Source: a virus | Lineage: Duplodnaviria; Heunggongvirae; Uroviricota; Caudoviricetes | Virus record (IMG/VR): IMGVR_UViG_2925914267_000005 | Location: 1 to 20,458 of that record | Length of the DNA: 20,458 bases | Direction: 5' to 3' (one strand) | Part shown: positions 1 through 17,039 of the stretch, one piece after another | Layout: each line of letters starts with the position of its first letter | How positions within the stretch are numbered: position 1 is the stretch's first letter | Translations under genes and position numbers: made by a program | The notes under the pieces: model-generated | What the model saw: only the letters and a program-made list of their open reading frames with translations | Database searches by the model: none | What the model was told of the DNA's origin: nothing

Positions 1-8
1 TCACTCTG

Positions 9-31
9 CCAGATGGCGCAATGCCATCTGG
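9..31. other. Perfect 9-bp inverted repeat (ccagatggc / gccatctgg, 5-nt loop) in host flank outside the prophage
   Basis: Read directly from sequence; no adjacent T-tract on either strand, so terminator function is uncertain. Confidence 0.3.
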
Positions 32-90
32 TATCACTTAAAGGTATTAAAAACAACTTTTTGTCTTTTTACCTTCCCGTTTCGCTCAAG

Positions 91-260
91 TTAGTATAAA
101 AAAGCTGAATGAGAAACGTAAAATGATATAAATATCAATATATTAAATTAGATTTTGCATAAAAAACAGACTACATAATACTGTAAAACACAACATATGC
201 AGTCACTATGAATCAACTACTTAGATAGCATTAGTGACCTACAACAGAGCATTAGCGCAA
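91..260 (-). other. attR: Prophage attR (P-O-B' junction): 15-bp lambda att core at 91-105 plus lambda attP P arm (about 106-260)
   Basis: Reverse complement of 91-105 is GCTTTTTTATACTAA, followed outward by CTTGAGCGAAACGGG (attB B' side as recalled); reverse complement of 106-260 reads like the lambda P arm (…AGGTCACTAAT…GTTGATTCATAGTGACTGCATATGTTGTGTTTTACAGTATTATG…). Confidence 0.85.
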
Positions 261-418
261 GGTGATTTTTGTCTTCTTGCGCTAATTTTTTGCTAATCCC
301 ACCATTTCTCAAAGATCACAAAGGGGTATGGTTGGTCTGGATGGCTCACCTGATGCAGAAGTATGATTTTGTAGTGACATCATTACCTTAATAGCGAACA
401 TTTCCTTGCCGCCTCGCA

Positions 419-446
419 TTGACGCGAGGTCGCACGGAAGTATAAT
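419..446 (+). promoter_or_regulatory. Putative sigma70 promoter for the acyltransferase gene: -35 TTGACG (419-424), 16-bp spacer, -10 TATAAT (441-446); 6-bp inverted repeat cctcgc/gcgagg (412-417 and 424-429) flanks the -35
   Basis: Hexamers read directly; positioned about 30 bp upstream of the ATG at 479. Confidence 0.5.
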
Positions 447-478
447 TCGTAGTCTTTCTACGTAGTTTAGGGAACAAT

Positions 479-1561: not shown

Positions 1562-2174
1562 CCAAGTCGTCAAGATGCACTTTAAGCCCCATAAGGGGCT
1601 TTCCATTCGCTCAGGTCTATCGAATCCACCATCCTGGCATACTAAAATGTTAATCGATATGCCATCAATCACTTCTTTCTCTTCATCCATTTCTGCCACG
1701 TAAATTGCGGCAATCGTATGGACGCTTTTCCTCAATTGGTTCATTATTTTTCCGATATGTCACACCCCATATTTAGATTTCAACGTTATTAGATCACTCG
1801 CAAACTGTTCCTTCAGCATTGGATATTTAGCTTGCTAATGCTGCATGATTGCTTCCATCAGTTAAAGATGCAGAACTAAAAGCTAACGTAAGAAATGAAA
1901 CATTCTCTTGATATGCTTTACTTAAGCTTTTCAGCTCTTTTTTGTATAGATAAGCATTTATTGTTGATTCTGAAATAATTTTATACTCCAGCTACTGACA
2001 GAATTTACTATTTGATGAATTGTGTTTATCTCCTAATGAGTGCTTAACATTTTAATTCATTACAATTTCCTTATATTCAAGGTATTTTTCAAGATCTTGC
2101 TCACAACGGAATATTGATACTAATTGACTTTCATCATTAGTTGAAAGTTGGATGTATAGATTCATCAATAGTCC

Positions 2175-3329
2175 TTAAATAGTATACCCACTTACACCAA
2201 CAGTTAAGCTAGATACTGATGATGTTGTCCAAGTGAATGTATAATAAATTGTTTGAGGGTTCTGGATTAGAAGCTCATAGTAAAAATCGACGCCAGTAGA
2301 TCTACTTAAACCAGCATATGCCTGGAAATACCCTACATCCTGGGTATCAGAAGCAATTGAAGCAGCTGCATAACCATCACCTTCCCCTGTGTTACAAAAC
2401 ACATAACCAGTACAGGTTGCTGCGTTTTTCGGGATCGCGTTTGTAAGAGAAATTGGAGTATACCCACCTGGGTTGCTACTGGTTGACAGTACATCAACTC
2501 GCTGGGTAGCGAACTTTCTCCCTCTTTGGTACCCAATTTTTAACAGCGCCCCAGATGTTGTTCCCCACACCGATACCAAAGCGCTCGCCGTATATCCTGC
2601 TGGCATGTTTGCACCACCATATACCGTGGGAGCAATAATAGAAGTGACGTCCTGAGCAAGTAATGCCGAGGTATCTGTCGTCGGGTTATAAATCAGGTAA
2701 ATTGCAACCCAACCACTGGCTGGCGCACTACCAGTATCCATGCCACCCGCCCCAGTCGTGGTGAGATTGATGGTTTTGTTGACCGAGCTTAAACGGTACT
2801 GCTTACCAGATAATGACTCACCAACAATGACTTGATCAGCAGTGAACGTTGCTGATGCCGACGCTATTGCCACGCTCATTTTCTGGTTAACAGCCTGACC
2901 AACCACGCCGGTGAATGATTCTCGCATCTTGAGGTAATCACTTAGCGGCGACCACCCAGCTGAAGAAGTATTAGGGTCGTTTGTGTTGTTGTTGATAGTG
3001 CTGATATAAATCGTTGCGCCGTCATCACTGATGAGAACAGCTCCAAGAGGATACCCTCCAACCGCCGTTGAAAAATCTGAGTCAAAAGCATTAAGAGCGC
3101 CTGCGCTAGACCATCTGCAAAGGGAAGACAACTCATACAAGATTTGATTCATGTCCTGCCCTTTGGGAGGAAGGCCCCCGGCAGATTTCAAAATCATTGT
3201 TATTGGTGGGAATCCTAAATCGTAGGATGCTGTATTATCTCCAGCTGGAGTTGTCGGCAGAAGATCCTCTCTTTGACCATTTACTCCAAAAGGTTTTGGT
3301 TGTTTTTTGGGTGAGTCAGAGCGATTCAT
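2175..3329 (-). CDS. Phage tail fiber protein
   Basis: 384-aa ORF; N-terminal GFPPITMILKSAGGLPPKGQDMNQILYEL resembles tail-collar fibre domain; Ser/Thr/Gly-rich C-terminal region; last gene of the baseplate operon. Confidence 0.7.
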   Translation of the reverse strand: MNRSDSPKKQPKPFGVNGQREDLLPTTPAGDNTASYDLGFPPITMILKSAGGLPPKGQDMNQILYELSSLCRWSSAGALNAFDSDFSTAVGGYPLGAVLISDDGATIYISTINNNTNDPNTSSAGWSPLSDYLKMRESFTGVVGQAVNQKMSVAIASASATFTADQVIVGESLSGKQYRLSSVNKTINLTTTGAGGMDTGSAPASGWVAIYLIYNPTTDTSALLAQDVTSIIAPTVYGGANMPAGYTASALVSVWGTTSGALLKIGYQRGRKFATQRVDVLSTSSNPGGYTPISLTNAIPKNAATCTGYVFCNTGEGDGYAAASIASDTQDVGYFQAYAGLSRSTGVDFYYELLIQNPQTIYYTFTWTTSSVSSLTVGVSGYTI

Positions 3330-3331
3330 AC

Positions 3332-3970
3332 TTAATTCCTATAAAATGTGCCATCATTAAACGGGTAGGCGTCAGATGAAAAACCGAAATAAGGACTAAT
3401 AATTTTTCGAATATTTACCTGAACACCACTAGGAACTGGCATTACTTCATAATTTGTGAGAATAGATTCCTCGTATGGTGCAAGTTCAAACTCGAATGTT
3501 ATTCCAATGGTCATATCTCGATAATTCACACAGTATGCCCTTCCTCTTTGAAAAAATAATATCTTTAAAAACTTGTTGATTTCTGGAATCGTAGCAATAC
3601 TTATGTTCGTAAACGCTTTGCAAAATATGAGTGTTCTGTAAGCCTCGTCACTCAATCTAACATTTGTTGTCTCCTGTGCTCCTCCAAAAAAAGGAGAGTT
3701 GTTGAACGGAGCGGGGTAATTTGGTTCTGCATTATCAGCTTCACTGAATCCGAAGGAATTGGTCTCTATAGGTGAGTTAATATAGCGACTTATCCCTACT
3801 ATTTTCCCCCACATATCCAGGCCGAATGTATCACAGGTAGTCAAATCCCATACTTTTTTAATAAACTCATCAGTGAAATCATCAAGGCTAATTGCCTGAT
3901 TAAAGGTATCAATGATGGATAGTAATTTTTTGCTTGCAGAGTACTGGGTAAGAATTGTGTCCTCCCACAT
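3332..3970 (-). CDS. Phage tail/baseplate protein (P2 gpI / Mu gp48 position)
   Basis: 212-aa ORF between the baseplate J-like gene and the tail fiber gene, matching P2 V-W-J-I-H order; family assignment by position only. Confidence 0.45.
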   Translation of the reverse strand: MWEDTILTQYSASKKLLSIIDTFNQAISLDDFTDEFIKKVWDLTTCDTFGLDMWGKIVGISRYINSPIETNSFGFSEADNAEPNYPAPFNNSPFFGGAQETTNVRLSDEAYRTLIFCKAFTNISIATIPEINKFLKILFFQRGRAYCVNYRDMTIGITFEFELAPYEESILTNYEVMPVPSGVQVNIRKIISPYFGFSSDAYPFNDGTFYRN

Positions 3971-3980
3971 ACATTTCCCC

Positions 3981-5210
3981 CTACGATAATGTAACAGTGA
4001 TATCTGATTCCTGAATGGTTGGAACCTGGTCTATGCCCATAGTCACAGCCGGTCCGTATAGTGAACCATCGAGAGAAACTTCAAGAGACAAAATTCCAAC
4101 TGTATCAGGAGATATTGAAATAACAGGGGCATAGTATTTACCAGCATTTATCGTCGAACCAATTCGTGCCTTTCCAATACCCTCATATCCTCCATTGAAC
4201 ACAGTGACAATCATTTCCTTTACTTGTTTAGTAATATCACTTGGGGGATTTAGTGAAGCATCGACATTTACCTTAAAGTAAACCCGCGTAGGTGATGCCT
4301 TTTGCCATTGCATTACATAAGATGGATATGGCGGCATGTAATTAACGTTATCGTAAACAGTGAACGTTGTATTACCATTCATATTGGCCCCGGGGTTATA
4401 AGTATTGAATATTGACTCAGCAACATCCGTATCAGCCCCGCCATAAACACAAATATAAACAGAATGCGCAAGAATCGGGAAATTCGTTGTTCCTTTATTT
4501 ACTGTTTCTGCAGTTCTGTTTGACCATACGTAAGCATCAAGCACACCATCAGTCGCAAGTAACGCGGCTAATGTAGATGCGTCCTGATTTCGACTGTTTC
4601 TGGCAACTGATTGTCTCCGGCGAGTTTCAAAGGCGATCCGTGATTCAACATCAACACCAACGACTCCAGGGCTAGTATTATTTACAGCATCCCACCCGGA
4701 AACGGCTCGATAAATCTGGTTCAGTGAACCTGCGGCACACGGAATCGGCCCGGTTGTTGTGTTGACAAACTGCACATCAACAGAGCCTGATGAGGGTATT
4801 ACAGCATTATCAATTGACTGATATATATACCCGCTCGTATCCACAGCGGTACTCCCTGCTGGTATTGTTGTTCCAACCTGACCAATGCATGTTGCTGTAA
4901 CAACTGTCCCCTGAGCAGCGATCCGCTCCATAAAGTAAATCCGACCAATCCCGTCCTGGAATCTGCCGGTTGAAAAGTCAGGGTTAATTTGATTAAACAA
5001 ACAAAGAAGCTTGTCGTATTCCTGAGCGATAATTTCAGTGTCAGACTGGGCGATCTGCCCTTGCGGTGAACTCAGTGACTGACTTGCGCCACCGCCAAGG
5101 GCCGTTGACATGTCTGTAAGTCTTCCCGCCAATACATCTGCTATATCGGGGACTGAAAGACCGTTTTCAGTGATGGTTACATCAGGAACAGCCGTATTTA
5201 ATGTCGTCAT
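3981..5210 (-). CDS. Baseplate J-like protein (P2 gpJ / Mu gp47 family)
   Basis: 409-aa ORF; size, position and sequence character consistent with baseplate J family; start overlaps upstream gene by 4 nt. Confidence 0.65.
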   Translation of the reverse strand: MTTLNTAVPDVTITENGLSVPDIADVLAGRLTDMSTALGGGASQSLSSPQGQIAQSDTEIIAQEYDKLLCLFNQINPDFSTGRFQDGIGRIYFMERIAAQGTVVTATCIGQVGTTIPAGSTAVDTSGYIYQSIDNAVIPSSGSVDVQFVNTTTGPIPCAAGSLNQIYRAVSGWDAVNNTSPGVVGVDVESRIAFETRRRQSVARNSRNQDASTLAALLATDGVLDAYVWSNRTAETVNKGTTNFPILAHSVYICVYGGADTDVAESIFNTYNPGANMNGNTTFTVYDNVNYMPPYPSYVMQWQKASPTRVYFKVNVDASLNPPSDITKQVKEMIVTVFNGGYEGIGKARIGSTINAGKYYAPVISISPDTVGILSLEVSLDGSLYGPAVTMGIDQVPTIQESDITVTLS

Positions 5211-5566
5211 AAGGTGGCCTGTGCAATATTACCATTGATATCTGTAACGCGGATTGTCCCGCGAGTTGTGCGTGTATTCTTGTCAAAGAAAACTGACGCC
5301 AGAGCATCCTCAACAACGGGTAATTTGAGTGCTTCAGCCTGCATTTTCTGAGCAATAAAACCAGGAGATGGTCGCCTGCCAAGAACTTCTGCCTTCCATG
5401 GGATCCCAAGTGTATTGTCGTAATAACACTCTCCTGAAAACACCAGGCATGCACTGGCGACATCCTGAGCAACAGAATATGATTCTTCTGCGATCGCCAG
5501 ATTGCCATTTCCGTCAAGCGTCAAGTCCCACGTAGAAGTGTCCAGCTGCATAGTTCTGTATGTCAT
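5207..5566 (-). CDS. Small baseplate wedge protein (P2 gpW / Mu gp46-like)
   Basis: 119-aa ORF between the V-like and J-like genes; translational coupling at both ends. Confidence 0.5.
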   Translation of the reverse strand: MTYRTMQLDTSTWDLTLDGNGNLAIAEESYSVAQDVASACLVFSGECYYDNTLGIPWKAEVLGRRPSPGFIAQKMQAEALKLPVVEDALASVFFDKNTRTTRGTIRVTDINGNIAQATL

Positions 5567-6255
5567 GTCGGTTTATCCGTTGCATTGGAATTTATTGTTG
5601 ACCCACCACTTTGTATTCCTGAAACAGAATGTTTGTGATTGTTATAGTTGTCCCTTAAATTTTTAACAGTAGATGACTGTGAGTCTGCGTTATCCTGAAT
5701 ATCGCCACTAACTTTAAGTAAAGGCGTATTCATGTTGACTCCATCAGGAGCATCAATATTTAACGATGAGCATTTGATATTTAGTGGGTTAGGCGTGGTT
5801 ATATTTATTGCACCGTCAGCGAATTCAATGAATTGAGTAGGTGAAATGTTTAATACCCCACCAAGATAAATCGCATCCGATTTACTGTGTCGTCTTTTGC
5901 TTCCAGGTACTGATTCTTTACGATTTTTTCTTACCAGTGATGTGTCTTTGTCGCATACCGCAATCAGACCAATATCACCTGCCACAGGGTCCATAATTAC
6001 AGCGCTGTTTCCTCTCTGCAACCGCCATACGGGAAGATCATATAAAACCGAGTTGGAAATCATTTTTCCTGTACGGTCTGTTCTGGTTAGTAAAGGAAGA
6101 ACATCAACAACTAAATCTGGTGCTTCCCCTCTGACTTCCTGAACTTTCGCTAACTCAATGAAGAAATATCCAGACATCAGCATCTCAAAAATATATTCCT
6201 GAGATTGAGCCTCACTTACCTGAGCAGGCGTTGGAGTAAATAGTTGCTTATCCAT
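5563..6255 (-). CDS. Baseplate assembly/spike protein V-like
   Basis: Start chosen at the ATG (MDKQLFTP…) that overlaps the upstream stop as ATGGATAA; the longer ORF to 6348 would overlap the upstream gene by about 100 nt; motif PVWRLQRGNSAVIMDPVAGDIGLIAV fits gpV-like fold. Confidence 0.5.
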   Translation of the reverse strand: MDKQLFTPTPAQVSEAQSQEYIFEMLMSGYFFIELAKVQEVRGEAPDLVVDVLPLLTRTDRTGKMISNSVLYDLPVWRLQRGNSAVIMDPVAGDIGLIAVCDKDTSLVRKNRKESVPGSKRRHSKSDAIYLGGVLNISPTQFIEFADGAINITTPNPLNIKCSSLNIDAPDGVNMNTPLLKVSGDIQDNADSQSSTVKNLRDNYNNHKHSVSGIQSGGSTINSNATDKPT

Positions 6256-7129
6256 TATTCTGTTGCGCCTCTGCTCTTTGTTCCGCTGTTCTGGCGGCAA
6301 TACATATTGAGTGCCATGAACCATTTGGCATCCATGATGATAATTCATGCCGAACGGAGGTTAACTTATACCTTCCGCTTGCATGTGGTAGTTCTGTTTT
6401 GATATCCACATATCTTCCAATGCAAAGGAGAGATGAATATTGCGTCTGAAACATCAGCCCCCCATTTGAAAATACAGGATATCCAACAAGTCCGTATTCT
6501 CTGGATATAAACGGAATTACATCATCTCTGTTTTTTTCTGAAGGCCAGAACTCTACTTTTGCAGGTGGCGTAGCTGACATTGCCAGTCCATAATCTGAAC
6601 AGACTCTATAAAGTTGCTCAAAAACACTTCCTTCAAAATGCGGACTTCCTGATGTTGTCATCCCTTTTACATTATTAAACACAGCTTCATAACCTGCACT
6701 TGCACAAATGGATGAGATGACATCTTCAACACTTTGCGCCCCCTGTGCTGTAAACGGGCTTGCTGGCATGTTCTGCAAATCAACATTAGAAGAAGCTGTT
6801 ATCATCAGGCTGCTTTCAGGAGCAGAATTCATGTTTGCTATTGATGAAAGCATCGTGCCAGAGAAAACAAGAGAATCATCGGCAAATACTTCAACATTTA
6901 GCTTCTGCCCTTCTCCAATAATACCATCAGCCTTCCCTGATATATCAGCAAGCCTTTCAATTCCTAACCCGTAAAGAGATATATCAGCCTGAGCGCCTCC
7001 CCGACCGGTAACAAAGTTCAGGGATACTGTTGACTTAACATTTCTGATGGAGATTTTATTGTTCCCATTTTTATCAAATGCTGATGATTCATTCGTGAAG
7101 TCAAACCGAAGACTGTGATTTTTATACAA
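6248..7129 (-). CDS. Phage tail/baseplate protein (possible hub, Mu gp44 / P2 gpD position)
   Basis: ORF runs to 7237, but the ATG starts would overlap the upstream gene by at least 80 nt; an in-frame TTG at 7129 preceded by GAGGA (8-nt spacer) overlaps the upstream stop; start uncertain. Confidence 0.4.
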   Translation of the reverse strand: MYKNHSLRFDFTNESSAFDKNGNNKISIRNVKSTVSLNFVTGRGGAQADISLYGLGIERLADISGKADGIIGEGQKLNVEVFADDSLVFSGTMLSSIANMNSAPESSLMITASSNVDLQNMPASPFTAQGAQSVEDVISSICASAGYEAVFNNVKGMTTSGSPHFEGSVFEQLYRVCSDYGLAMSATPPAKVEFWPSEKNRDDVIPFISREYGLVGYPVFSNGGLMFQTQYSSLLCIGRYVDIKTELPHASGRYKLTSVRHELSSWMPNGSWHSICIAARTAEQRAEAQQNNG

Positions 7130-7424
7130 GCTCGTTTTCCTCGATGTAGTACAGCAAGTAACGGCTACCCAAGCCTTCCCATTGCGGATCCGATTCCCCA
7201 TCATTATCAATGAAAATAAGGTCTCCCTTAAATCCAAGGTAGGAATATCTTACCATCTTATTCCCATACAGACATGGAACGCCCTGCATAATTGGGACTT
7301 CATTAACAGTTAAATCCATGTACATAAAACTCTGTCGCTGAACAAGTTTTATATTACATTGCTGACCAGACAGACTTACCGAAATGGACTGAGATTTGCT
7401 GGGAAGAACAGATACTGTAATCAT
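7122..7424 (-). CDS. Hypothetical phage tail-module protein (100 aa)
   Basis: Intact ORF with an in-frame stop 9 nt upstream and an AAGG ribosome-binding site; first retained gene after the IS600-like element. Confidence 0.4.
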   Translation of the reverse strand: MITVSVLPSKSQSISVSLSGQQCNIKLVQRQSFMYMDLTVNEVPIMQGVPCLYGNKMVRYSYLGFKGDLIFIDNDGESDPQWEGLGSRYLLYYIEENELV

Positions 7425-7573
7425 GTACTCGCCTTAACTATATTTTTTGCAATATCTGCCGCTTTTTTTGTTGCGCTGTTTGTGACTTCGAGTATTGGTT
7501 TGGATACCGTGAGGTAGCCTGAGTTTAACGGACACTCCTTCCTGAAATAGAATGGCATCAGAAGGAGCTAATA

Positions 7574-7876
7574 ATGAGCAGAAAAACCCAACGTTACTCT
7601 AAAGAGTTCAAAGCCGAAGCTGTCAGAACGGTTCTTGAAAATCAACTTTCGATCAGTGAAGGCGCTTCCCGATTATCTCTTCCTGAAGGCACTTTAGGGC
7701 AATGGGTTACCGCCGCCAGAAAAGGGCTCGGTACTCCTGGTTCCCGCACGGTGGCTGAACTGGAATCTGAAATTCTGCAACTGCGTAAGGCGTTAAATGA
7801 AGCTCGCCTTGAGCGAGATATATTAAAAAAAGCAACAGCGTATTTTGCACAGGAGTCGCTGAAAAATACGCGTTAA
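7574..7876 (+). CDS. IS3-family transposase OrfA (helix-turn-helix)
   Basis: 100-aa ORF MSRKTQRYSKEFKAEAVR…; contains the frameshift window near its 3' end. Confidence 0.85.
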   Translation: MSRKTQRYSKEFKAEAVRTVLENQLSISEGASRLSLPEGTLGQWVTAARKGLGTPGSRTVAELESEILQLRKALNEARLERDILKKATAYFAQESLKNTR

Positions 7877-7911
7877 TCGAACAATGGCGACAACAATTTC
7901 CCATTGAAGCG

Positions 7912-8730
7912 ATGTGTCAGGTATTTGGTGTATCCAGGAGCGGTTATTACAACTGGGTACAGCATGAACCCTCAGACAGAAAACAAAGTGATGAGCGGCT
8001 AAAACTGGAGATTAAGGTGGCACATATCCGCACTCGCGAAACATATGGAACCCGGCGGCTCCAGACGGAGCTGGCAGAGAATGGCATCATCGTTGGTCGT
8101 GACCGACTGGCACGTCTTCGTAAGGAGCTAAGGCTACGCTGTAAGCAGAAACGCAAGTTCAGAGCGACTACGAACTCGAACCACAATCTGCCAGTTGCGC
8201 CAAATCTGCTGAACCAGACGTTCGCTCCTACAGCACCAAATCAGGTCTGGGTGGCGGACCTGACGTATGTTGCCACACAGGAGGGATGGTTGTACCTCGC
8301 TGGCATCAAAGATGTTTATACGTGCGAAATTGTCGGCTACGCCATGGGAGAGCGCATGACAAAAGAGCTGACAGGTAAAGCCCTGTTTATGGCGCTCAGG
8401 AGCCAGCGCCCACCTGCCGGGCTAATCCACCACTCTGATCGAGGTTCACAGTACTGCGCATACGATTACCGGGTCATACAGGAGCAGTTTGGTCTGAAAA
8501 CATCAATGTCGCGTAAAGGTAACTGTTACGACAACGCTCCGATGGAAAGCTTCTGGGGAACGCTGAAAAATGAGAGCCTGAGCCACTATCGTTTTAATAA
8601 CCGGGATGAAGCCATCTCAGTAATACGGGAATACATTGAGATTTTCTACAATCGTCAGCGTCGTCACTCTCGTCTGGGGAATATCTCCCCGGCAGCCTTC
8701 AGGGAAAAATATCATCAGATAGCTGCTTAA
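7912..8730 (+). CDS. IS3-family transposase OrfB (DDE catalytic domain), normally made as OrfAB fusion by -1 frameshift
   Basis: 272-aa ORF with integrase-core-like motifs (…HSDRGSQY…NAPMESFWGTLK…). Confidence 0.85.
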   Translation: MCQVFGVSRSGYYNWVQHEPSDRKQSDERLKLEIKVAHIRTRETYGTRRLQTELAENGIIVGRDRLARLRKELRLRCKQKRKFRATTNSNHNLPVAPNLLNQTFAPTAPNQVWVADLTYVATQEGWLYLAGIKDVYTCEIVGYAMGERMTKELTGKALFMALRSQRPPAGLIHHSDRGSQYCAYDYRVIQEQFGLKTSMSRKGNCYDNAPMESFWGTLKNESLSHYRFNNRDEAISVIREYIEIFYNRQRRHSRLGNISPAAFREKYHQIAA

Positions 8731-8994
8731 AAAAAGAACAAATGGTAGTGTCCGCTATTGCCAGTACACCTCAGGGAAATATGTCGATAAATGGGCAATA
8801 CGAACGACGGCAATGATTGCCAGAGAACTTGGTAAACAGAACAACAAGGCTGCCTGATGGTGGCCTTTATTTTTGGCATAAACAACAGAATAAACACTGC
8901 ACTGTGTATTCATTCCAACGAGTGAATACACGGAGCAATGTCGCTCGTAACTAAACAGGAGCCAACTTGTTCTGATTATTGGAAATCTTCTTTG

Positions 8995-9020
8995 CCCTCC
9001 AGTGTGAGGGCAATTTTTTT
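8995..9020 (+). terminator. Possible intrinsic terminator (ccctc-cagtgt-gaggg plus T8) just upstream of the coiled-coil gene
   Basis: 5-bp GC stem and T-run read directly; short stem, so weak. Confidence 0.3.
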
Positions 9021-9033
9021 TAACGGGGGAAAT

Positions 9034-10002
9034 ATGAGTGAAGTAACAGATTTAGTTGTTATTGAAAAAGCAAATGCAATGACTGTATTTCAGTCTGCCG
9101 ACCAGATTGAAGAAATCCTTCAAAAGGTTGAACGTGAAGTTATGTCCTTTGTGCCTGATATCACAACGGCAAAGGGCAGAAAGGAGATCGCTTCTCTGGC
9201 GTATAAAGTTGCGCAGACGAAAACATATCTCGATGGTCTTGGCAAAGACCTTGTTGCTGAACTGAAGGAAATTCCAAAGCTAATTGATGCTAACCGCAAG
9301 ACAGTGCGTGATCGCCTTGATGAGCTGAAAGCCAAGGCACGCCAGCCTCTTACTGATTATGAGGAAGAACAGGCGCGGATTAAAGCCGAAGAAGAAGCTA
9401 AGGCAGCAGCTGAAGCTCTCGCAAAGCAAATTGAGTCTGACCATGAAATAGCGATTTTGATGGATCGCGAATTTGACCGCCAAAGAGAAGAGGCAAGACT
9501 CAAAGCGGAGCAGGAAAAGCGAGAGCATGAAGAACGCTTAAAAAGAGAAGCTGAAGAGAAAGCCAGAGCTGAAGCCGAAGCAAAGGCAAAAGCCGAAATT
9601 GAAGCAGCAGCAAGGCGAGAAGCAGAAGCTAAGGCCGCAGCGGAACGTGCAGAGCGTGAACGCATTGAAGCCGAGCAACGAGCACAGCGCGAAGCAAAAG
9701 AGGCAGCAGAACGAGCTGAAAGAGAAAAGCAGGCAGCAATTGAAGCAGAACGCCGAAAAGCACAGGAGGAGGCAGAACGAATCCGGCGCGAGGCTGAAGC
9801 AAAAGAGCAAGCCAGAATAGCAGAAGAAAAAAGAATCAAGGACGAAGAAGAGCGTAGAGCAAAGGATAAAGCTCACCGGAGAGAAGTAAATAACAAAATA
9901 CTTGCTGACCTTATCAAGGTTGGCGCATCAGAAGATGTTGCTAAAAATATCATAATAGCCATCGCAAAAGGCGAAGTATTCGCAACAAAAATAACCTACT
10001 AA
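9034..10002 (+). CDS. Hypothetical phage early protein with long E/A/K/R-rich predicted coiled-coil region (TolA-domain-II-like composition)
   Basis: ATG at 9034 preceded by GGGGGA; ORF could extend upstream to 8938; central ~200 aa is low-complexity EAKAR-type; occupies the position of ea10/ral/sieB upstream of cIII. Confidence 0.6.
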   Translation: MSEVTDLVVIEKANAMTVFQSADQIEEILQKVEREVMSFVPDITTAKGRKEIASLAYKVAQTKTYLDGLGKDLVAELKEIPKLIDANRKTVRDRLDELKAKARQPLTDYEEEQARIKAEEEAKAAAEALAKQIESDHEIAILMDREFDRQREEARLKAEQEKREHEERLKREAEEKARAEAEAKAKAEIEAAARREAEAKAAAERAERERIEAEQRAQREAKEAAERAEREKQAAIEAERRKAQEEAERIRREAEAKEQARIAEEKRIKDEEERRAKDKAHRREVNNKILADLIKVGASEDVAKNIIIAIAKGEVFATKITY

Positions 10003-10026
10003 TAAAACCAACATAAGGAACCACCC

Positions 10027-10197
10027 ATGATTTACGCAATCGCGGGAGGCGCTCGCATGGGTGCCTTCCAACTAAATGAATCTTTACTTGAACGAATCAC
10101 CCGTAAATTACGTGACGGATGGAAACGACTTATCGACATACTTAATCAGCCAGGAGTCCCAAAAAATGGATCAAACACTTATGGCTATCCAGACTAA
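10027..10197 (+). CDS. cIII: Lambda-like CIII (FtsH/HflB inhibitor)
   Basis: 56-aa [59 protein letters not shown], near-identical over most of its length to lambda CIII as recalled; preceded by AAGGA. Confidence 0.85.
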   Translation: MIYAIAGGARMGAFQLNESLLERITRKLRDGWKRLIDILNQPGVPKNGSNTYGYPD

Positions 10198-10309
10198 ATT
10201 CACTATCGCCACTTTTATTGGCGATGAAAAGATGTTTCGTGAGGCCGTCGACGCTTATAAAAAATGGATATTAATACTGAAACTGAGATCAAGCAAAAGC
10301 ATTCACTAA
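10166..10309 (+). CDS. kil: Lambda Kil (FtsZ-ring inhibitor)
   Basis: 47-aa [50 protein letters not shown] matches lambda Kil as recalled; overlaps cIII 3' end. Confidence 0.85.
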
Positions 10310-10680
10310 CCCCCTTTCCTGTTTTCCTAATCAGCCCGGCATTTCGCGGGCGATATTTTCACAGCTATTTCAGGAGTTCAGCCATGAACGCTTATTACAT
10401 TCAGGATCGTCTTGAGGCTCAGAGCTGGACGCGTCACTACCAGCAGATCGCCCGTGAAGAGAAAGAGGCAGAACTGGCAGACGACATGGAAAAAGGCCTG
10501 CCCCAGCACCTGTTTGAATCGCTATGCATCGATCATTTGCAACGCCACGGGGCCAGCAAAAAAGCCATTACCCGTGCGTTCGATGACGATGTTGAGTTTC
10601 AGGAGCGCATGGCAGAACACATCCGGTACATGGTTGAAACTATTGCCCGCCACCAGGTTGATATTGATTCAGAGGTATAA
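10264..10680 (+). CDS. gam: Lambda Gam (RecBCD inhibitor); GamS internal start at 10383
   Basis: 138-aa [52 protein letters not shown]… near-identical to lambda Gam as recalled. Confidence 0.92.
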
Positions 10681-10685
10681 AACGG

Positions 10686-11471
10686 ATGAGTACAGCACTC
10701 GCAACGCTGGCAGGGAAGCTGGCTGAACGTGTCGGCATGGATTCTGTCGACCCACAGGAACTGATCACCACTCTTCGCCAGACAGCATTTAAAGGCGATG
10801 CCAGCGATGCGCAGTTCATCGCATTGCTGATCGTCGCCAACCAGTACGGCCTTAATCCGTGGACGAAAGAAATTTACGCCTTCCCTGATAAGCAGAACGG
10901 CATCGTTCCGGTGGTGGGCGTTGATGGCTGGTCCCGTATCATCAATGAAAACCAGCAGTTTGATGGCATGGACTTTGAGCAGGACAATGAATCCTGCACA
11001 TGCCGGATTTACCGCAAGGACCGTAATCATCCGATCTGCGTTACCGAGTGGATGGATGAATGCCGCCGCGAACCATTCAAAACCCGCGAAGGCAGAGAAA
11101 TCACGGGGCCGTGGCAGTCGCATCCCAAACGGATGTTACGGCATAAAGCCATGATTCAGTGTGCCCGTCTCGCCTTCGGATTTGCTGGTATCTATGACAA
11201 GGATGAAGCCGAGCGCATTGTCGAAAATACCGCATACACTGCAGAACGTCAGCCGGAACGCGACATCACTCCGGTTAACGATGAAACCATGCAGGAGATT
11301 AACACTCTGCTGATTGCCCTGGATAAAACATGGGATGACGACTTATTGCCGCTCTGTTCCCAAATATTTCGCCGCGACATTCGCGCATCGTCAGAACTGA
11401 CACAGGCCGAAGCAGTGAAAGCTCTTGGATTCCTGAAACAGAAAGCCACTGAGCAGAAGGTGGCAGCATGA
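10686..11471 (+). CDS. bet: Lambda Red beta (single-strand annealing protein)
   Basis: 261-aa [41 protein letters not shown]… near-identical to lambda Bet as recalled. Confidence 0.95.
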
Positions 11472-12148
11472 CACCGGACATTATCCTGCAGCGTACCGGG
11501 ATCGACGTGAGAGCTGTCGAACAGGGGGATGATGCATGGCACAAATTACGGCTCGGCGTCATCACCGCTTCAGAAGTTCACAACGTGATAGCAAAGCCCC
11601 GATCAGGAAAGAAGTGGCCTGACATGAAAATGTCCTACTTCCACACCCTGCTGGCTGAGGTTTGCACCGGTGTGGCTCCGGAAGTTAACGCTAAAGCGCT
11701 GGCCTGGGGAAAACAGTACGAGAACGACGCCAGAACCCTGTTTGAGTTCACTTCCGGCGTAAATGTTATTGAATCCCCGATCATCTATCGCGACGAAAGT
11801 ATGCGCACCGCCTGCTCTCCCGATGGTTTATGCAGTGACGGCAATGGCCTTGAGCTGAAATGCCCGTTTACCTCCCGGGATTTCATGAAGTTCCGGCTCG
11901 GTGGTTTCGAGGCCATAAAGTCGGCTTACATGGCCCAGGTGCAGTACAGCATGTGGGTGACGCGAAAAGATGCCTGGTACTTTGCCAACTATGACCCGCG
12001 TATGAAGCGTGAAGGCCTGCATTATGTCGTGGTTGAGCGGGATGAAAAGTACATGGCGAGTTTTGACGAGATGGTGCCGGAGTTCATCGAAAAAATGGAC
12101 GAGGCACTGGCTGAAATTGGTTTTGTATTTGGGGAGCAATGGCGATGA
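11468..12148 (+). CDS. exo: Lambda exonuclease (Red alpha)
   Basis: 226-aa [68 protein letters not shown]… near-identical to lambda Exo as recalled; ATGA overlap with bet. Confidence 0.95.
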
Positions 12149-12327
12149 CGCATCCTCACGATAATATCCGGGTAGGCGCGATCACTTTCGTCTACTCCGT
12201 TACAAAGCGAGGCTGGGTATTTCCCGGCCTTTCTGTTATCCAAAATCCACTGAAAGCCCAGCGGCTGGCTGAGGAGATAAATAATAAACGAGGGGCTGTA
12301 TGCACAAAGCATCTCCCGTTGAGTTAA
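12145..12327 (+). CDS. Lambda orf60a-like hypothetical protein
   Basis: [56 protein letters not shown]…; ATG overlaps exo stop (ATGA); alternative ATG at 12139. Confidence 0.8.
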
Positions 12328-12491
12328 GAACGAGTATCGAGATGGCACATAGCCTCGCTCAAATTGGAGTCAGGTTTGTGCCAATACCAGTAGAAACAGA
12401 CGAAGAATTTCATACGTTAGCCACATCCCTTTCACAAAAGCTGGAAATGATGGTGGCGAAAGCAGAAGCAGATGAGAGAGACCAGGTATGA
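12300..12491 (+). CDS. Lambda orf63-like hypothetical protein
   Basis: 63-aa ORF in lambda order between orf60a and orf61. Confidence 0.75.
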   Translation: MHKASPVELRTSIEMAHSLAQIGVRFVPIPVETDEEFHTLATSLSQKLEMMVAKAEADERDQV

Positions 12492-12571
12492 CAACCACTG
12501 AATGCATTTTTCTGGCAGCGGGCTTCATATTCTGTGTGCTTATGCTTGCCGACATGGGACTTGTTCAATGA
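12488..12571 (+). CDS. Candidate 27-aa hydrophobic micro-protein (MTTTECIFLAAGFIFCVLMLADMGLVQ)
   Basis: Not in ORF track (too short); start ATG overlaps orf63 stop as ATGA and its stop overlaps orf61 start as ATGA; single predicted transmembrane helix. Confidence 0.35.
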   Translation: MTTTECIFLAAGFIFCVLMLADMGLVQ

Positions 12572-12783
12572 CACCTCAGCAAGAAAACGCCCTTCGCAGT
12601 ATTGCCCGTCAGGCTAATTATGAAATCAAAAAAGCCAGACAGCGGTTTCCGGATAAAAACGTCGATGACATTTGCCGTAGCGTACTGAAGAAGCACCGCG
12701 AAACGGTAACGCTGATGGGATTCACACCGACTCACTTAAGTCTGGCAATCGGTATGTTAAACGGCGTCTTTAAGGAACGGTGA
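12568..12783 (+). CDS. Lambda orf61-like hypothetical protein
   Basis: 71-aa ORF MTPQQENALRSIARQANYEIKKARQRFPDKNVDDICRSVLKKHRETVTLMGFTPTHLSLAIGMLNGVFKER matches lambda orf61 as recalled. Confidence 0.8.
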   Translation: MTPQQENALRSIARQANYEIKKARQRFPDKNVDDICRSVLKKHRETVTLMGFTPTHLSLAIGMLNGVFKER

Positions 12784-12804
12784 ACATGAAAAGCAAAATC
12801 ATCA

Positions 12805-12828
12805 GGGAGCTACAGGCTCCTTTTTTAT
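12805..12828 (+). terminator. Intrinsic terminator-like hairpin (ggagc-tacag-gctcc plus T6) after orf61
   Basis: Stem and T-run read directly. Confidence 0.5.
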
Positions 12829-12881
12829 TATTCGCATTCACCCTCAAGCGTATTAACCAACAATTCAGGGATTAATGAAAG

Positions 12882-13103
12882 ATGGCGGACATCATTGATT
12901 CAGCATCAGAAATTGAAGAATTACAGCGCAATACAGCAATAAAAATGCGCCGCCTGAACCACCAGGCTATATCTGCCACTCATTGTTGTGAGTGTGGCGA
13001 TCCCATAGATGAGCGAAGACGCCTGGCCGTTCAGGGTTGTCGGACTTGTGCAAGTTGCCAGGAAGTTCTGGAGCTTATCAGTAAACAGAGAGGTTCGAAG
13101 TGA
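12882..13103 (+). CDS. TraR/DksA-family C4-type zinc finger protein
   Basis: 73-aa ORF with CxxC…CxxC (CCECGDPIDERRRLAVQGCRTCASC) characteristic of phage/plasmid TraR-like proteins. Confidence 0.7.
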   Translation: MADIIDSASEIEELQRNTAIKMRRLNHQAISATHCCECGDPIDERRRLAVQGCRTCASCQEVLELISKQRGSK

Positions 13104-13471
13104 GCGAAATTAACTCTCAGGCACTGCGTGAAGCGGCAGAGCAGGCAATGCATGACAACTGGGGATTTGACGCGGACCTTTTCCATGAGCTGGTAACACC
13201 ATCGATTGTGCTGGCACTGCTGGATGAACGGGAAAGAAACCAGCAATACATCAAACGCCGCGACAAGGAGAACGAGGATATTGCACTAACGGTAGGGAGG
13301 CTGCGCGTTGAGCTGGAAGGCAAACACAGGCGCATTACTGAGCTGACAATGTGGATTAAGCGACTGAGTTCCTCTCTCAAAAACGCAAAACCAGACAGCA
13401 AGTTGCCGGATGACGCAATGATCTGGCTAAATAATGAAGGGCTTACCAGTATAGAGGATATTTTACGATGA
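13100..13471 (+). CDS. Ea22-like protein (N-terminal region resembles lambda Ea22)
   Basis: MSEINSQALREAAEQAMHDNWGFDADLFHELVTPSIVL…ERERNQQYIKRRD… matches recalled lambda Ea22 N-terminus, C-terminal part diverges. Confidence 0.65.
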   Translation: MSEINSQALREAAEQAMHDNWGFDADLFHELVTPSIVLALLDERERNQQYIKRRDKENEDIALTVGRLRVELEGKHRRITELTMWIKRLSSSLKNAKPDSKLPDDAMIWLNNEGLTSIEDILR

Positions 13472-14006: not shown

Positions 14007-14060
14007 TGAACCGCCCCGGGAATCCTGGAGACTAAACTCCCTGAGAAAGAGGTAAACAGG

Positions 14061-14387
14061 ATGACTAAAAATACTCGTTTTTCCCCCGAAGTCCGTCAGA
14101 GGGCGATTCGTATGGTTCTGGAAAGTCAGGGCGAATATGACTCACAGTGGGAGGCAATTTGTTCCATTGCCCCAAAGATTGGCTGTACACCGGAGACTCT
14201 GCGTGTCTGGGTACGCCAGCATGAGCGGGATACCGGAGGCGGTGATGGCGGGCTCACCACCGCTGAACGTCAGCGTCTGAAAGAGCTGGAACGTGAAAAT
14301 CGTGAACTGCGCCGCAGTAACGATATCCTTCGCCAGGCTTCCGCTTATTTTGCGAAGGCGGAGTTCGACCGCCTCTGGAAAAAGTGA
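14061..14387 (+). CDS. IS3-family transposase OrfA
   Basis: 108-aa [29 protein letters not shown]…. Confidence 0.88.
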
Positions 14388-15274
14388 TGCCACTGCTGGA
14401 TAAGCTGCGTAAGCTGTACGGGGTCGGACCGGTATGCAGTGAACTACATATTGCCCCGTCAACGTATTACCACTGTCAGCAACAGCGACATCATCCTGAT
14501 AAACGCAGTGCCCGTGCGCAGCGCGATGACTGGCTGAAGAAAGAGATACTGCGCGTATACGATGGGAATCATCAGGTATACGGTGTGCGTAAAGTCTGGC
14601 GTCAGTTGTTACGGGAAGGAATCAGGGTAGCCAGATGTACAGTGGCGCGCCTCATGGCGGTTATGGGACTTGCCGGTGTTCTCCGGGGTAAAAAGGTCCG
14701 CACTACCGTCAGCCGGAAAGCCGTTGCCGCAGGCGACCGCGTAAACCGTCAGTTTGTGGCAGAACGTCCTGACCAGTTGTGGGTGGCTGATTTTACTTAC
14801 GTCAGCACATGGCAGGGCTTCGTCTATGTGGCGTTCATCATTGATGTGTTTGCCGGATACATCGTGGGGTGGCGGGTCTCATCGTCTATGGAAACGACAT
14901 TCGTGCTGGATGCTCTGGAGCAGGCGTTATGGGCCCGTCGACCGTCCGGCACAGTCCATCACAGTGATAAAGGTTCTCAGTATGTATCGCTGGCCTACAC
15001 ACAGCGGCTTAAGGAAGCCGGATTACTGGCATCAACAGGAAGTACTGGTGACTCGTATGACAACGCGATGGCGGAGAGCATCAATGGCCTTTACAAAGCG
15101 GAGGTAATACACCGTAAGAGCTGGAAAAACCGGACAGAAGTGGAGCTGGCCACACTCACGTGGGTGGACTGGTATAACAATCGACGATTGCTGGAAAGGC
15201 TGGGCCATATCCCACCGGCAGAAGCAGAAAAAGCTTATTATGCTTCCATCGGAAACGATGATCTGGCAGCCTGA
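14384..15274 (+). CDS. IS3-family transposase OrfB (DDE domain)
   Basis: 296-aa ORF with …HHSDKGSQY… and …[13 protein letters not shown]… motifs. Confidence 0.88.
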
Positions 15275-15319
15275 GTTCACAGATAAAACACTCTCCAGGA
15301 AACCCGGGGCGGTTCAACA

Positions 15320-15581
15320 GAAAGTTCTGGATAACCTGTCACAGCAAAAACTTGTTCACAGAGATGTGCTGCCGTTCTCGCTTCCGGTAATTCCGGATGG
15401 TTGGATAAGCTGTAGTGAGCGAATGCCCGCTCAAGATGATTGGATTTTAATTTATTCAAAGCACGGCGAGTATATGGCAGGACAGGTACAAGGGGAATAC
15501 GTGGAGTTGAGCGACGGCACTTTATCGTGGTTAGGGAACGCCTTGTTCTGGATGCCGCTACCGGAACCGCCGCAGGGGTGA
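15320..15581 (+). pseudogene. 3' fragment of the IS-interrupted phage gene; C-terminal DUF551-like domain
   Basis: In-frame continuation of the 13468 ORF after the IS; C-terminus …WISCSERMPAQDDWILIY…WMPLPEPPQG resembles DUF551 phage proteins. Confidence 0.65.
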
Positions 15582-15647
15582 AATGATGCTTGGCCTGAAG
15601 TATTTTATGTAATTGGTATTGCTATATTTTTATCTGGGGATAAACGA

Positions 15648-15890
15648 ATGTTCTCTCTGATTCAACGTGGTCAGATATACACCGATAGCGCTGGCTATCC
15701 AGTAAAAATCATTCGTAGTACTGATCACTCAGTGTTCTTCAAGAGGATGGATGGCTATCCTGGAAGGGTGTGCATCAGAAAATTCAATAATTTATTCGAA
15801 CACATTGATCACAGAGAATATCACCAGATCCTGGCTGAAACAGAACAGGAGAACCATCTGAAAAAATTACGTGCCATGCAAAGGAGATAA
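15648..15890 (+). CDS. Hypothetical small phage protein (80 aa)
   Basis: ORF with plausible codon usage in the accessory region upstream of xis; no family recognised with confidence. Confidence 0.5.
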   Translation: MFSLIQRGQIYTDSAGYPVKIIRSTDHSVFFKRMDGYPGRVCIRKFNNLFEHIDHREYHQILAETEQENHLKKLRAMQRR

Positions 15891-16032
15891 GCCGATAAAG
15901 GTGTTCGCGATAAAGGTGAATATCGGCACTGAATAACAATCCTCGCACTCGCGGGGATTTCTTTTATCTGAACTCGCTACGGCGGGTTCACCGTCAAGCT
16001 TTCTTCAATGCAAAAGCCAATGTGAGGACGCT

Positions 16033-16814
16033 ATGAATACTCAAATTTCTGTTGAAACACTTTCACCAATCACCTACAAACAAACCAACGTCATCACCAG
16101 CGAACTATTGGCGCAGTTGTACGGAACGGATGTTGTGCGCATCCGGCAAAACCATCATGAAAACAAGTCGCGCTTTGTTGAGGGGGTACACCTTCTACAA
16201 GGTCGTTGGTGACGAGCTGCGCGCTAAAACACAAAGTAGCTTTAAACTACTTTGTGAAAATTGCCCCAAATGCACGCCACCTCACCCTCTGGACAGAGCG
16301 CGGAGCCGCCCGTCACGCGAAGATGCTCGAAACGGATCAGGCACGGGACGTGTTCGAAAAACTGGAGGGCGGCTACTTCAATCAGCGCGAAAAGGTTGCC
16401 AACCATCCTCAACCAGTACCGCAACCAGAAAGTAGCCTAGACCGTGCGCGAGCCATGGAAATAGCTTTGAACGTGGCGGATCGACTGGTGAATATGTTCC
16501 CGAATCTGTCCTCAGAATCAAAGCAGGCAGCAGTAGCTGGAGTGTTCAACACGATTGTTGGTCGCGATGTTGTACCTCTGCCAGCTATCTCAGAGCACTA
16601 CTACTCTGCTACGGAAGTCGGCCAGCGCTACGGTATTTCAGCCAACAAGGTAGGACGCATTGCCAATACCTACATGCTCAAAACAGAAAAGTACGGTAAG
16701 TGGTTCATCGACAAATCGGCGCACAATGACAAGCAGGTTGAAACATTTCGGTACAACGAGGCTGGAGTGCACAAAATAGAGGAACTCATCGAAGGAGAGC
16801 GAAAGGCTGCATGA
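16033..16814 (+). pseudogene. ORF6N/KilA-N-like antirepressor-family gene, apparently disrupted by frameshift(s)
   Basis: ATG at 16033 with GAGG RBS encodes MNTQISVETLSPITYKQTNVITSELLAQLYGTDVVRIRQNHHENKSRFVEGVH then stops at 16210-16212; homology-like continuation FYKVVGDELRAKTQ… is in the +1 frame and …APNARHLTLWTERGAARHAKMLETDQA… in a third frame (ORF 16206-16814). Confidence 0.5.
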
Positions 16815-16890: not shown

Positions 16891-17012
16891 GCGGCTTTTT
16901 ATGCCCGTAATACGGCATAGTCACATCCGTACAAAGGTCGGGTGGAGAGGCGTAATACAACACCCGCAAGGGAAATATGCCCGGAGCTACCTATATTGCT
17001 CTAGTTGACACC

Positions 17013-17039
17013 CGATCACCAGCTACTCACTGGTGATCG
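17013..17039. promoter_or_regulatory. Perfect 10-bp inverted repeat cgatcaccag-ctactca-ctggtgatcg immediately downstream of a TTGACA hexamer (17005-17010), upstream of the AntA-like gene
   Basis: Read directly; candidate operator or RNA hairpin. Confidence 0.4.

Follow-up and report, generated by a model that had tools for sequence, protein, structure and literature searches.

The window analysed here (the whole stretch of 20,458 nucleotides) carries an intact lambda-type cIII-kil-gam-bet-exo block at positions 10027-12148 and none of the promoter, antiterminator and repressor genes that serve this block in lambda. Are these genes still expressed, and why are they intact? Our analysis indicates that 10027-12148 probably derives from a lambda-like prophage residing at att-lambda, as part of its delayed-early 'left operon' segment (ral'-LPR1-orf322-cIII-kil-gam-bet-exo ... 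xis-int), and that a recent IS600-associated deletion left the block orphaned and, as judged from the sequence, probably silent.

The att-bounded element lies completely inside the window. Exact 15-bp lambda att cores are present at both ends, i.e. attR at 91-105 (GCTTTTTTATACTAA on the minus strand) and attL at 19114-19128 (minus strand). The P arm adjoining the attR core (87-292) corresponds to lambda 27742-27537, the int-side arm also matches lambda, and the host flanks are in the expected order: ybhB/bioA lie at one end, and ybhC, which begins at 19175 beyond the attL core, lies at the other. With att sites at both ends and a known attachment site as its location, the element is a defective (cryptic) lambdoid prophage: replication, Q, lysis and head genes, all essential for the lytic cycle, are missing, and its ~19 kb consist solely of tail-end genes, a left-operon segment and IS elements. 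The attR end carries an intact, low-GC gene for an O-acetyltransferase-like acyltransferase moron (479-1561, plus strand), and a literature search for an acyltransferase prophage at ybhC in Shigella returned nothing relevant. The surviving end of the late module (2175-7509, minus strand) comprises tail fibre, wedge, baseplate J, hub and plug genes and had no close match in the phage collection searched; its last gene is truncated by IS600, leaving the final ~29 codons (7421-7509). At the other end of the element, xis (17774-17992, 71 of 72 residues shared with lambda) and int (17970-19040, 350 of 356) are intact on the plus strand and together span 17774-19040.

The first-pass annotation had described the block as intact and near-identical to lambda. 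Its coordinates proved exact, and all five genes, which are encoded on the plus strand, are intact, with zero internal stops or frameshifts. Near-identity holds for kil (10166-10309; 47 aa, 47/47 identical to lambda Kil), for gam (10264-10680; the 138-aa form, with 134/138 identical residues and four substitutions, Pfam Gam E 4e-64 over 98/98 positions of the profile), for bet (10686-11471; RecT-family annealase, Pfam RecT E 3e-33, 260/261) and for exo (11468-12148; YqaJ/lambda exonuclease, Pfam YqaJ E 2e-29, 222/226). It applies to cIII (10027-10197; 56 aa, Pfam Lambda_CIII E 9e-25) only in part, as 46 of 56 residues agree with lambda and the protein has a variant N-terminus in which residues 2-15 are unlike lambda and the remainder is identical. 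The same CIII protein is present in P22-like prophages. An Rfam scan of 8774-12148 gave zero matches, and the failure to detect the cIII thermoregulator family is consistent with the divergent 5' end of cIII. The gam gene includes the 98-aa short form GamS (10384-10680), whose exact allele occurs in 340 collection blocks, some of them in prophages retaining cI and N; the exact exo allele occurs in 7,585. The bet stop codon (11471) overlaps the exo start codon (11468), and full-length Exo, Bet and Gam, the components of a lambda Red module, are predicted from the sequence. Because of the near-identity to lambda, the protein identities can be considered settled.

At the nucleotide level, 10078-13318 matches lambda 33418-30177 with 97.2% identity over 3,242 nt, far beyond chance. 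The mosaic joint is placed at ~10078; in the region upstream, a charged, coiled-coil-like 322-aa ORF (9034-10002, plus strand; PHROG 1376) takes the place of lambda ea10. A mechanically predicted start of this ORF at 8938 is unlikely to be real, as the reading frame would run through the terminator tL2a, and minus-strand ORFs in the block (e.g. 10599-11123) were regarded as mechanical antisense predictions, the plus-strand genes accounting for the region.

The control region that would normally govern these genes has been lost. We found no pL/oL, nutL, N, cI, cro or cII in the whole att-bounded element, which bears out the earlier statement that pL, N and cI are absent. tblastn searches with lambda N, cI, cro, rexA/B, sieB and ea10, as well as 17 N/cI/cro/cII-type and related lambdoid-prophage proteins, yielded nothing in the element (best E 0.03) apart from one real match, Ral residues 39-66 at 8771-8854. 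Five N-type proteins reached a best E-value of 0.03, eight cI/S24-type repressor proteins gave no match in the element, site scans recovered no boxB-like or oL-like sequence at ≤3 mismatches, and Pfam scans of all major ORFs revealed no protein combining HTH_3 and Peptidase_S24. Of the parts of an N-antiterminated pL operon, pL/oL, N with nutL and a cognate cI are all missing, and the internal terminators tL2a and tL3 are present.

How this region was lost can be read from the IS600 scar. IS600 (7510-8773, plus strand) measures 1264 bp, has full-length TGAGG...CCTCA inverted repeats at both ends and is 99.3% identical to annotated E. coli IS600 copies. As initially noted, its transposase genes, orfA (7574-7876, carrying HTH_Tnp_1) and orfB (7912-8730) in a frameshift arrangement, lie upstream of the block in the same orientation. 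The element is flanked by ccg and ggg, i.e. there is no 3-bp target duplication, and its two neighbours, a tail gene and ral, are unrelated parts of the prophage; the site is therefore a deletion or recombinant junction rather than a simple insertion. The contrast is provided by the same window, in which an IS629/IS1203-like IS3-family element (14007-15316, plus strand) carries a 3-bp ACA target duplication and represents a simple insertion splitting a dATP/dGTP-pyrophosphohydrolase-DUF551 gene. To the right of IS600, lambda homology begins at 8774 (lambda 34170), inside ral, such that the junction reads from IS600 into GGGAAATATGTCG and Ral residues 39-66 plus the stop codon remain (8774-8857, plus strand). 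This exact IS600-ral junction is absent from 5,426 complete E. coli genomes and from the GTDB representative genomes, and look-ups with ORFs specific to the junction returned either no match or just a short, chimeric draft contig. The IS600/IS629 content suggests that the host is Shigella or an E. coli closely related to it. We suggest that IS600-mediated recombination or transposition caused a recent deletion reaching from the tail genes through mid-ral, which would have removed the lysis genes, Q, the replication genes, cro/cI, cII, pL/oL, nutL and N.

Between IS600 and cIII, two intrinsic terminators have been retained, each with a better structure than its lambda counterpart. The first is an intrinsic-terminator-like hairpin at 8846-8876 (plus strand; stem 8846-8867, followed by TTATTTTT) with a 9-bp stem and a predicted energy of -13.9 kcal/mol; it overlaps the ral stop codon and owes its better stem to two A-to-G changes relative to lambda. 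The second had been listed as a weak hairpin at 8995-9020. The hairpin is real, but it is not weak: with a perfect 8-bp stem and a 6-nt loop (stem 8992-9013, then T8; 8992-9021 in total, plus strand), -13.2 kcal/mol and a z-score of -4.5, it corresponds to lambda tL2a. Further downstream, a hairpin with a T-rich tail (12209-12241, plus strand; -17.6 kcal/mol; lambda ~31287-31265) follows exo, at what we take to be the lambda tL3 site, whose position in lambda was reportedly given by Luk and Szybalski in 1982 and by Datsenko and Wanner in 2000. In lambda, tL2a (bioRxiv 10.1101/2024.10.31.621285) forms the 3' end of the sRNA LPR1/PreS, which is not produced in repressed lysogens. The homologue of this Hfq-dependent sRNA occupies 8934-9021 (plus strand) in the window, its 5' end being approximate and placed ~88 nt upstream of the terminator end. 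LPR1/PreS is also a regulator of host dnaN.

Could the block nevertheless be transcribed? Consensus and position weight matrix (PWM) scans, which are blind to activator-dependent and alternative-sigma promoters, detected no promoter better than chance in 8774-10027: the best candidate scored 9.0, a value reached by 106 of 200 shuffled sequences. In the proposed course of events, no credible promoter would remain 3' of tL2a, and cIII, kil, gam, bet and exo would be orphaned. When pL is derepressed, the Kil made from it leads to filamentation and loss of viability (PMC3961180); given this toxicity, the intact kil gene itself argues for silence of the block. From these sequence features, we infer little or no expression of the five genes from cIII to exo.

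The most serious alternative is that transcription enters from IS600, either by read-through from the transposase promoter or from a hybrid promoter based on the -35-like TTGCCA motif in the right end of IS600, resulting in constitutive, low-level production of CIII, Kil, Gam, Bet and Exo and altered host recombination. IS600 and the block share their orientation, and the IS629-like element upstream of the block in a sister genome (see below) does so as well. The left end of IS600 contains a good promoter-like site (7525-7553; 9/12 matches to the consensus, PWM score 11.7), and no plus-strand terminator-like site was found within IS600, including its 3' end; transcripts therefore plausibly exit the element. 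IS3 is known as a 'mobile promoter', IS911 forms a junction promoter, and right ends of IS3-family elements are able to supply a -35 element. However, the transposase promoters of this family are weak, and the hybrid promoter at the IS600 end (TTGCCA, 16-nt spacer, TATGTC) scores 3.9, compared to 12.5 for the pL control, with TATGTC as its -10 element. In the paper library searched, nothing was found on an outward promoter of IS600. Activation by an IS element would call for a reasonably good outward or hybrid promoter and a terminator-free path to the target, and neither is present here: the 1,253 nt from the IS end to cIII contain two canonical intrinsic terminators, in the absence of N or nut. 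Any weak transcription leaving IS600 would thus meet the terminators at 8846-8876 and tL2a with no N/nut system to override them, and constitutive Kil would be toxic. The proposal of the first-pass annotation that IS read-through or an outward promoter could drive the block fares poorly against these observations, and we consider it unlikely. Intrinsic terminators are never fully efficient, and together with the IS600 site scoring 11.7 this may allow for a trickle of read-through.

If the block is silent, its integrity calls for an explanation, which is provided by a sister genome. L021 (CP170291.1) shows 0 mismatches to the window over 5,256 and 4,788 bp (10,044 bp shared) but differs in its deletion, in which window position 5256 is connected through an IS629-like element with a site 22 nt upstream of orf28-ral, the junction reading from IS629 into AACCACTTATTTGAGG, with no target duplication. 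This record lies outside the E. coli collection searched. The two deletions are independent IS-mediated events. In both, IS600 in the window and the IS629-like element in CP170291.1, the IS transposase points into the kept segment. Over window 1-7510, relatives that possess the full tail module share 99.9% identity. The 10,044 bp without a single difference leave no time for decay, and intactness says nothing on selection; the coding sequences are intact because the deletion is recent, not because they are in use. Nearly all differences from lambda in gam, bet and exo are synonymous (pN/pS 0.07) and therefore accrued in working phages, and the exo, GamS, bet, kil and cIII alleles are each found unchanged in prophages retaining cI and N.

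A second, quite unlikely alternative holds that the block has been domesticated and is kept by selection. Its conditional expression would start downstream of tL2a, at a promoter that depends on stress or an activator and has gone unrecognised, and the host might profit from division arrest by Kil, from repair assisted by Gam/Red or from the exclusion of incoming phages, among other effects. All five genes as well as int and xis are intact, division inhibitors of cryptic prophages have been proposed to aid stress tolerance (PMC3961180), and the ral-to-int segment as well as the acyltransferase end survived each of the independent deletions, in the window and in L021. This double retention could hint at selection, with n=2 and end points that depend on, and are explained by, the positions of the IS copies. 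Against domestication, the zero divergence from the sister genome leaves no selection signal in the intact genes, no promoter above chance was found, and the same genes have been destroyed elsewhere by IS elements and truncations: bet carries an IS21 in L039, gam is truncated in L041, IS elements reside in the kil-gam spacer and in exo of O103:H2, and exoD is a pseudogene in K-12 DLP12. The matches to O103:H2 and related STEC that start at ~8880 were rejected as analogues of the present structure, since they keep N and cI and their exo is disrupted by an IS element, and match H26 turned out to consist of adjacent prophage pieces rather than of this structure.

A more elaborate version appears more improbable still. 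Here, ral'/LPR1-cIII-kil-Red-int would form a domesticated module in which an IS-driven leak ends at tL2a and yields constitutive LPR1/PreS, with the escaping fraction providing low-level Red and Gam and, consequently, more recombination in an IS-rich, Shigella-like genome. Finally, we give almost no credence to the notion that contigs were collapsed or mis-joined at IS600 and that the true locus is a complete prophage: IS copies often break or mis-join short-read assemblies, the related draft contig L034 is visibly chimeric and the exact junction recurs in 0 of the 5,426 complete genomes and in none of the GTDB representatives, but in the complete-genome record L021 the same locus shows a comparable IS-bounded deletion in otherwise identical sequence, IS600 is complete at both ends and has proper inverted repeats, and both att sites bound the element with the ybhB-side and ybhC flanks properly ordered.

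A recent, orphaned left-operon remnant, our preferred reading, has informative counterparts. One is the early-left (pL) operon of lambda, with which it shares the genes and their order (ral-ea10-cIII-kil-gam-bet-exo-...-xis-int, ea10 being replaced here), the overlapping start and stop codons, the att site, tL2a/LPR1 and the tL3-position hairpin, and 97-98% nucleotide identity over 8774-9019, 10078-13318 and 17747-19128. Unlike lambda, the remnant has no pL/oL, nutL, N, sieB, 5' half of ral or immunity region, carries the 322-aa ORF instead of ea10 and a CIII N-terminus of another lambdoid type, and combines these with a tail module that is not lambda-like and the acyltransferase moron. Engineered recombineering prophages of the DY330/DY380 type are defective lambda prophages at att-lambda that likewise retain the int-to-pL-operon segment with gam-bet-exo. 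They differ in that they deliberately keep cI857, pL/oL and N, exactly what the remnant misses, which shows what expression of Red requires. The use of defective lambda prophages for recombineering has been described (PMC3961180).

Among natural cryptic prophages, Rac of E. coli K-12 offers a functional phage recombination pair, recE-recT, and a division inhibitor, kilR, that are silent in a defective prophage. Rac encodes RecE/RecT and no Gam, whereas the remnant encodes Exo/Bet and Gam. Rac also retains its repressor and control region, and its silence is repression, whereas the remnant has lost the very promoter. In the absence of an activating sbcA mutation, Rac recET is 'completely repressed'; for these genes to act, transcription has to be supplied by a mutation or rearrangement, or a phage has to pick them up (PMC3945230). 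DLP12 of K-12 (intD-xisD'-exoD'-peaD'-renD::IS3-emrE...) is similarly lambdoid and IS-scarred, has lost its immunity region and is left with an int-xis-exo end. In contrast to the remnant, in which all of these genes are intact and kil and cIII are present in addition, its exo and xis are already pseudogenes, indicative of older decay, and deletion end points and IS type are different. A DLP12-like remnant in E. coli CP148323.1 shares the att-lambda/ybhC site, a gam-bet-exo-...-int segment with intact gam-bet-exo, and the lack of N/cI and the immunity region. The element studied here is best read as recent, transcriptionally orphaned and probably silent, comparable to Rac recET or to a young DLP12.

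As the evidence stands, the locus represents a textbook snapshot of early prophage decay through IS-mediated deletion. It cautions that intact phage genes lacking their promoter and antiterminator should not be taken as active. If expressed, the block would equip the strain with its own Red/Gam system together with a division inhibitor, which could be relevant to the plasticity of the genome in an IS-rich lineage and to genetic engineering without plasmids. The more realistic role would be a passive one, namely that of a reservoir for recombination with incoming lambdoid phages. Lambda is known to acquire DNA from defective prophages (PMC3945230), and given more than 3 kb of 97-100% homology, incoming lambdoid phages may pick up or exchange the Red, kil and cIII alleles preserved in this remnant.

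The cIII-kil-gam-bet-exo block (10027-12148, + strand) is intact and lies where the first-pass annotation had placed it: all five ORFs score above the Pfam gathering thresholds and none contains an internal stop. The claim that the block is near-identical to lambda holds for kil (10166-10309; 47/47 residues), gam (10264-10680, with the short GamS form at 10384-10680; 134/138), bet (10686-11471; 260/261) and exo (11468-12148; 222/226), all on the + strand, and nucleotide alignment matches lambda 33418-30177 to window 10078-13318 at 97.2%. It extends only in part to cIII (10027-10197, + strand; 46/56), a variant allele owing to a mosaic joint within the gene at ~10078; the differences from lambda CIII are confined to residues 2-15. 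The encoded proteins are presumably functional. Its Red, kil and cIII genes are lambda's own.

Lambda 27742-27537 (att core and P arm) corresponds to window 87-292, and lambda 29105-27724 (xis, int and att core) to 17747-19128. Exact 15-bp att cores are located at 91-105 and 19114-19128, host ybhC forms the right flank, and related contigs carry ybhB and bioA on the left; the window therefore contains, in its entirety, a ~19-kb prophage at att-lambda. Tail-fibre and baseplate genes (2175-7424, - strand) and the next tail gene, cut down to its final ~29 codons (7421-7509), are followed by a full-length IS600 (7510-8773, + strand; 1264 bp), the last third of ral (starting at 8774, + strand; lambda 34170), a short spacer homologous to lambda that holds two terminator hairpins, and a 322-aa ORF replacing ea10 (9034-10002, + strand). 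The latter encodes a Glu/Ala/Lys/Arg-rich, coiled-coil-like protein without a Pfam domain, which falls in a PHROG of unknown function (1376). P22-like prophages with other recombination modules, of the Rad52/Erf or AAA type, encode the identical protein in their pL operons and also carry Abc2-type anti-RecBCD genes. After exo come orf60a and orf63. A TraR/DksA-type zinc-finger gene (12882-13103, + strand; 73 aa) is intact and orphaned like the rest of the segment; lambda Orf73, of the same family, is reported to reprogram host transcription (PMC9239242). Among the accessory genes that follow, a dATP/dGTP-pyrophosphohydrolase-DUF551 gene (215 aa and intact in relatives) is split by an IS629/IS1203-like element (14007-15316, + strand) containing an Rfam ALIL frameshift pseudoknot (14342-14458). 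Two antirepressor-like genes (16206-16814 and 17066-17689) precede xis and int (within 17774-19128; 71/72 and 350/356 residues); an Rfam sRNA-Xcc1 match (16936-17025, + strand; 64.9 bits, gathering score 53) lies directly 5' of the second, an AntA/P22-type gene. At the opposite end, an intact, low-GC (35-38%) acyltransferase gene (479-1561, + strand; Pfam Acyl_transf_3, PHROG O-acetyltransferase) adjoins attR and looks like an O-antigen-modifying lysogenic-conversion moron. Its exact protein is found in 212 blocks of the collection, at att-lambda and at a second chromosomal site (loci L017 and L019), and in L019 it adjoins a different, Mu-like tail module.

The reported absence of pL, N and cI was confirmed. 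A tblastn search of the window was negative (best E 0.03 overall) for lambda N, cI, cro, RexA/B, SieB and Ea10 and for 17 proteins from other lambdoid prophages, of the N, cI, cro and cII types or related to them; only Ral gave a genuine match, with residues 39-66 (8771-8854). Likewise, no boxB-like or oL-like site with up to three mismatches is present in the window. We consider it likely that the block is a recently orphaned and probably silent remnant of the left operon, generated by an IS600-mediated deletion.

The same orientation of IS600 and the block, on which the idea of an IS-driven, active Red system was based, is real; such a drive is nevertheless unlikely. A consensus scan of the + strand from 7300 to 12600 returned one promoter-like site, that of the IS600 transposase (7525-7553). 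A separate PWM scan, which recovered lambda pL (12.5) and pRM as controls, scored this site 11.7. The only hybrid promoter using the -35-like TTGCCA of the IS600 right end (-10, TATGTC) scores 3.9, and the best site in 8774-10027 (9.0) was equalled in 106 of 200 shuffles. Low-level expression by read-through is conceivable in principle, since IS600 has no terminator-like site on its + strand and transcripts may thus exit the element, but we judge it improbable: they would have to cross two canonical intrinsic terminators on the + strand ahead of cIII without antitermination. The first (8846-8867, followed by TTATTTTT; -13.9 kcal/mol) carries two A-to-G changes that close mismatches relative to lambda. 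The second (8992-9013, followed by T8; -13.2 kcal/mol, z -4.5, matched by no shuffle) is the documented lambda terminator tL2a, and not the weak hairpin it was taken for; its stem is longer and its T-run has eight residues versus six in lambda, so that both hairpins are better formed than their counterparts. In lambda, N, acting through nutL, lets transcription pass these terminators. Both N and nutL are missing from the remnant, and the N or Q of a superinfecting phage would therefore be unable to act here in trans.

tL2a also provides the 3' terminus of LPR1/PreS, an Hfq-dependent sRNA that is made after pL derepression and not in repressed lysogens (bioRxiv 10.1101/2024.10.31.621285). A homologue (~8934-9021, + strand), ending at tL2a, is kept in the remnant and shows two differences from lambda before homology stops in the T-run; the ral-tL2a stretch as a whole (8774-9019) has five mismatches in 246 nt. 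Read-through from IS600 past the first hairpin would stop at the LPR1 end. The lambda sRNA upregulates host dnaN.

IS600 has proper inverted repeats, flanked by ccg and ggg, and lacks a 3-bp target duplication; the IS629-like element of the same window has one (ACA). Given that IS600 additionally joins unrelated prophage parts, a tail gene and mid-ral, it marks the place of an IS-mediated deletion. Related contigs share the left end (99.3-99.99% identity to window 1-7510), and their tail module runs on beyond 7510. The complete sister genome CP170291.1 (L021) shows 0 differences over 5,256 and 4,788 shared positions. In L021, an IS629-like element (14777-16087 there), without target duplication, connects the base at window 5256 with a site lying 22 nt 5' of orf28-ral; ral is intact. 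Neither arrangement could have given rise to the other: a single ancestral prophage has undergone two independent deletions, both very recent, and so has lost its lytic and immunity regions twice, in parallel. The IS600/IS629 content of the window, along with the lack of its IS600-ral junction in complete E. coli genomes, points tentatively to a host that is Shigella or closely related to it.

The intactness of the genes is, on this comparison, no evidence of selection in the present host, since zero differences from the sister lineage mean that there was no time for decay. Divergence of gam, bet and exo from lambda is almost all synonymous (pN/pS 0.07) and therefore built up while the genes sat in working phages. 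The exact Exo and GamS alleles recur in 7,585 and 340 blocks of the collection, respectively, and the Bet, Kil and CIII alleles in prophages retaining repressor and N. Selective retention, with a conditional promoter that was not recognised in the sequence, is hinted at solely by the two independent deletions having kept the same segment, and we regard it as very unlikely. An assembly artefact is scarcely credible, as a complete genome has a comparable structure. When derepressed pL drives kil, cells filament and lose viability (PMC3961180); that kil is intact here thus accords better with a silent block than with one expressed constitutively.

Similar remnants have been found elsewhere. DLP12 of K-12 (intD-xisD'-exoD'-peaD'-renD::IS3-emrE) resembles the one described here, with xisD, exoD and peaD being pseudogenes, and a DLP12-like remnant that occupies the same ybhC site in E. 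coli CP148323.1 has gam-bet-exo intact and lacks an immunity region. Decay is visible in other prophages, with an IS21 in bet (L039), gam cut to 44 aa (L041) and, in O103:H2, IS elements in the kil-gam spacer and in exo. Engineered recombineering prophages retain cI857, pL and N, exactly the parts absent here. With xis and int intact and both att cores exact, the remnant could in formal terms still be excised by Int and Xis from another source, such as a lambda-type phage resident in the same cell; cII and pL, from which its own int and xis would be expressed, are missing. The block as a whole is in the position of recET of Rac, described as "completely repressed" until an sbcA mutation activates it or lambda picks it up (PMC3945230). 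We propose that the realistic role of an orphaned and silent, or nearly silent, left-operon segment would be that of a homology reservoir, because homologous recombination lets lambda acquire sequences from defective prophages (PMC3945230).
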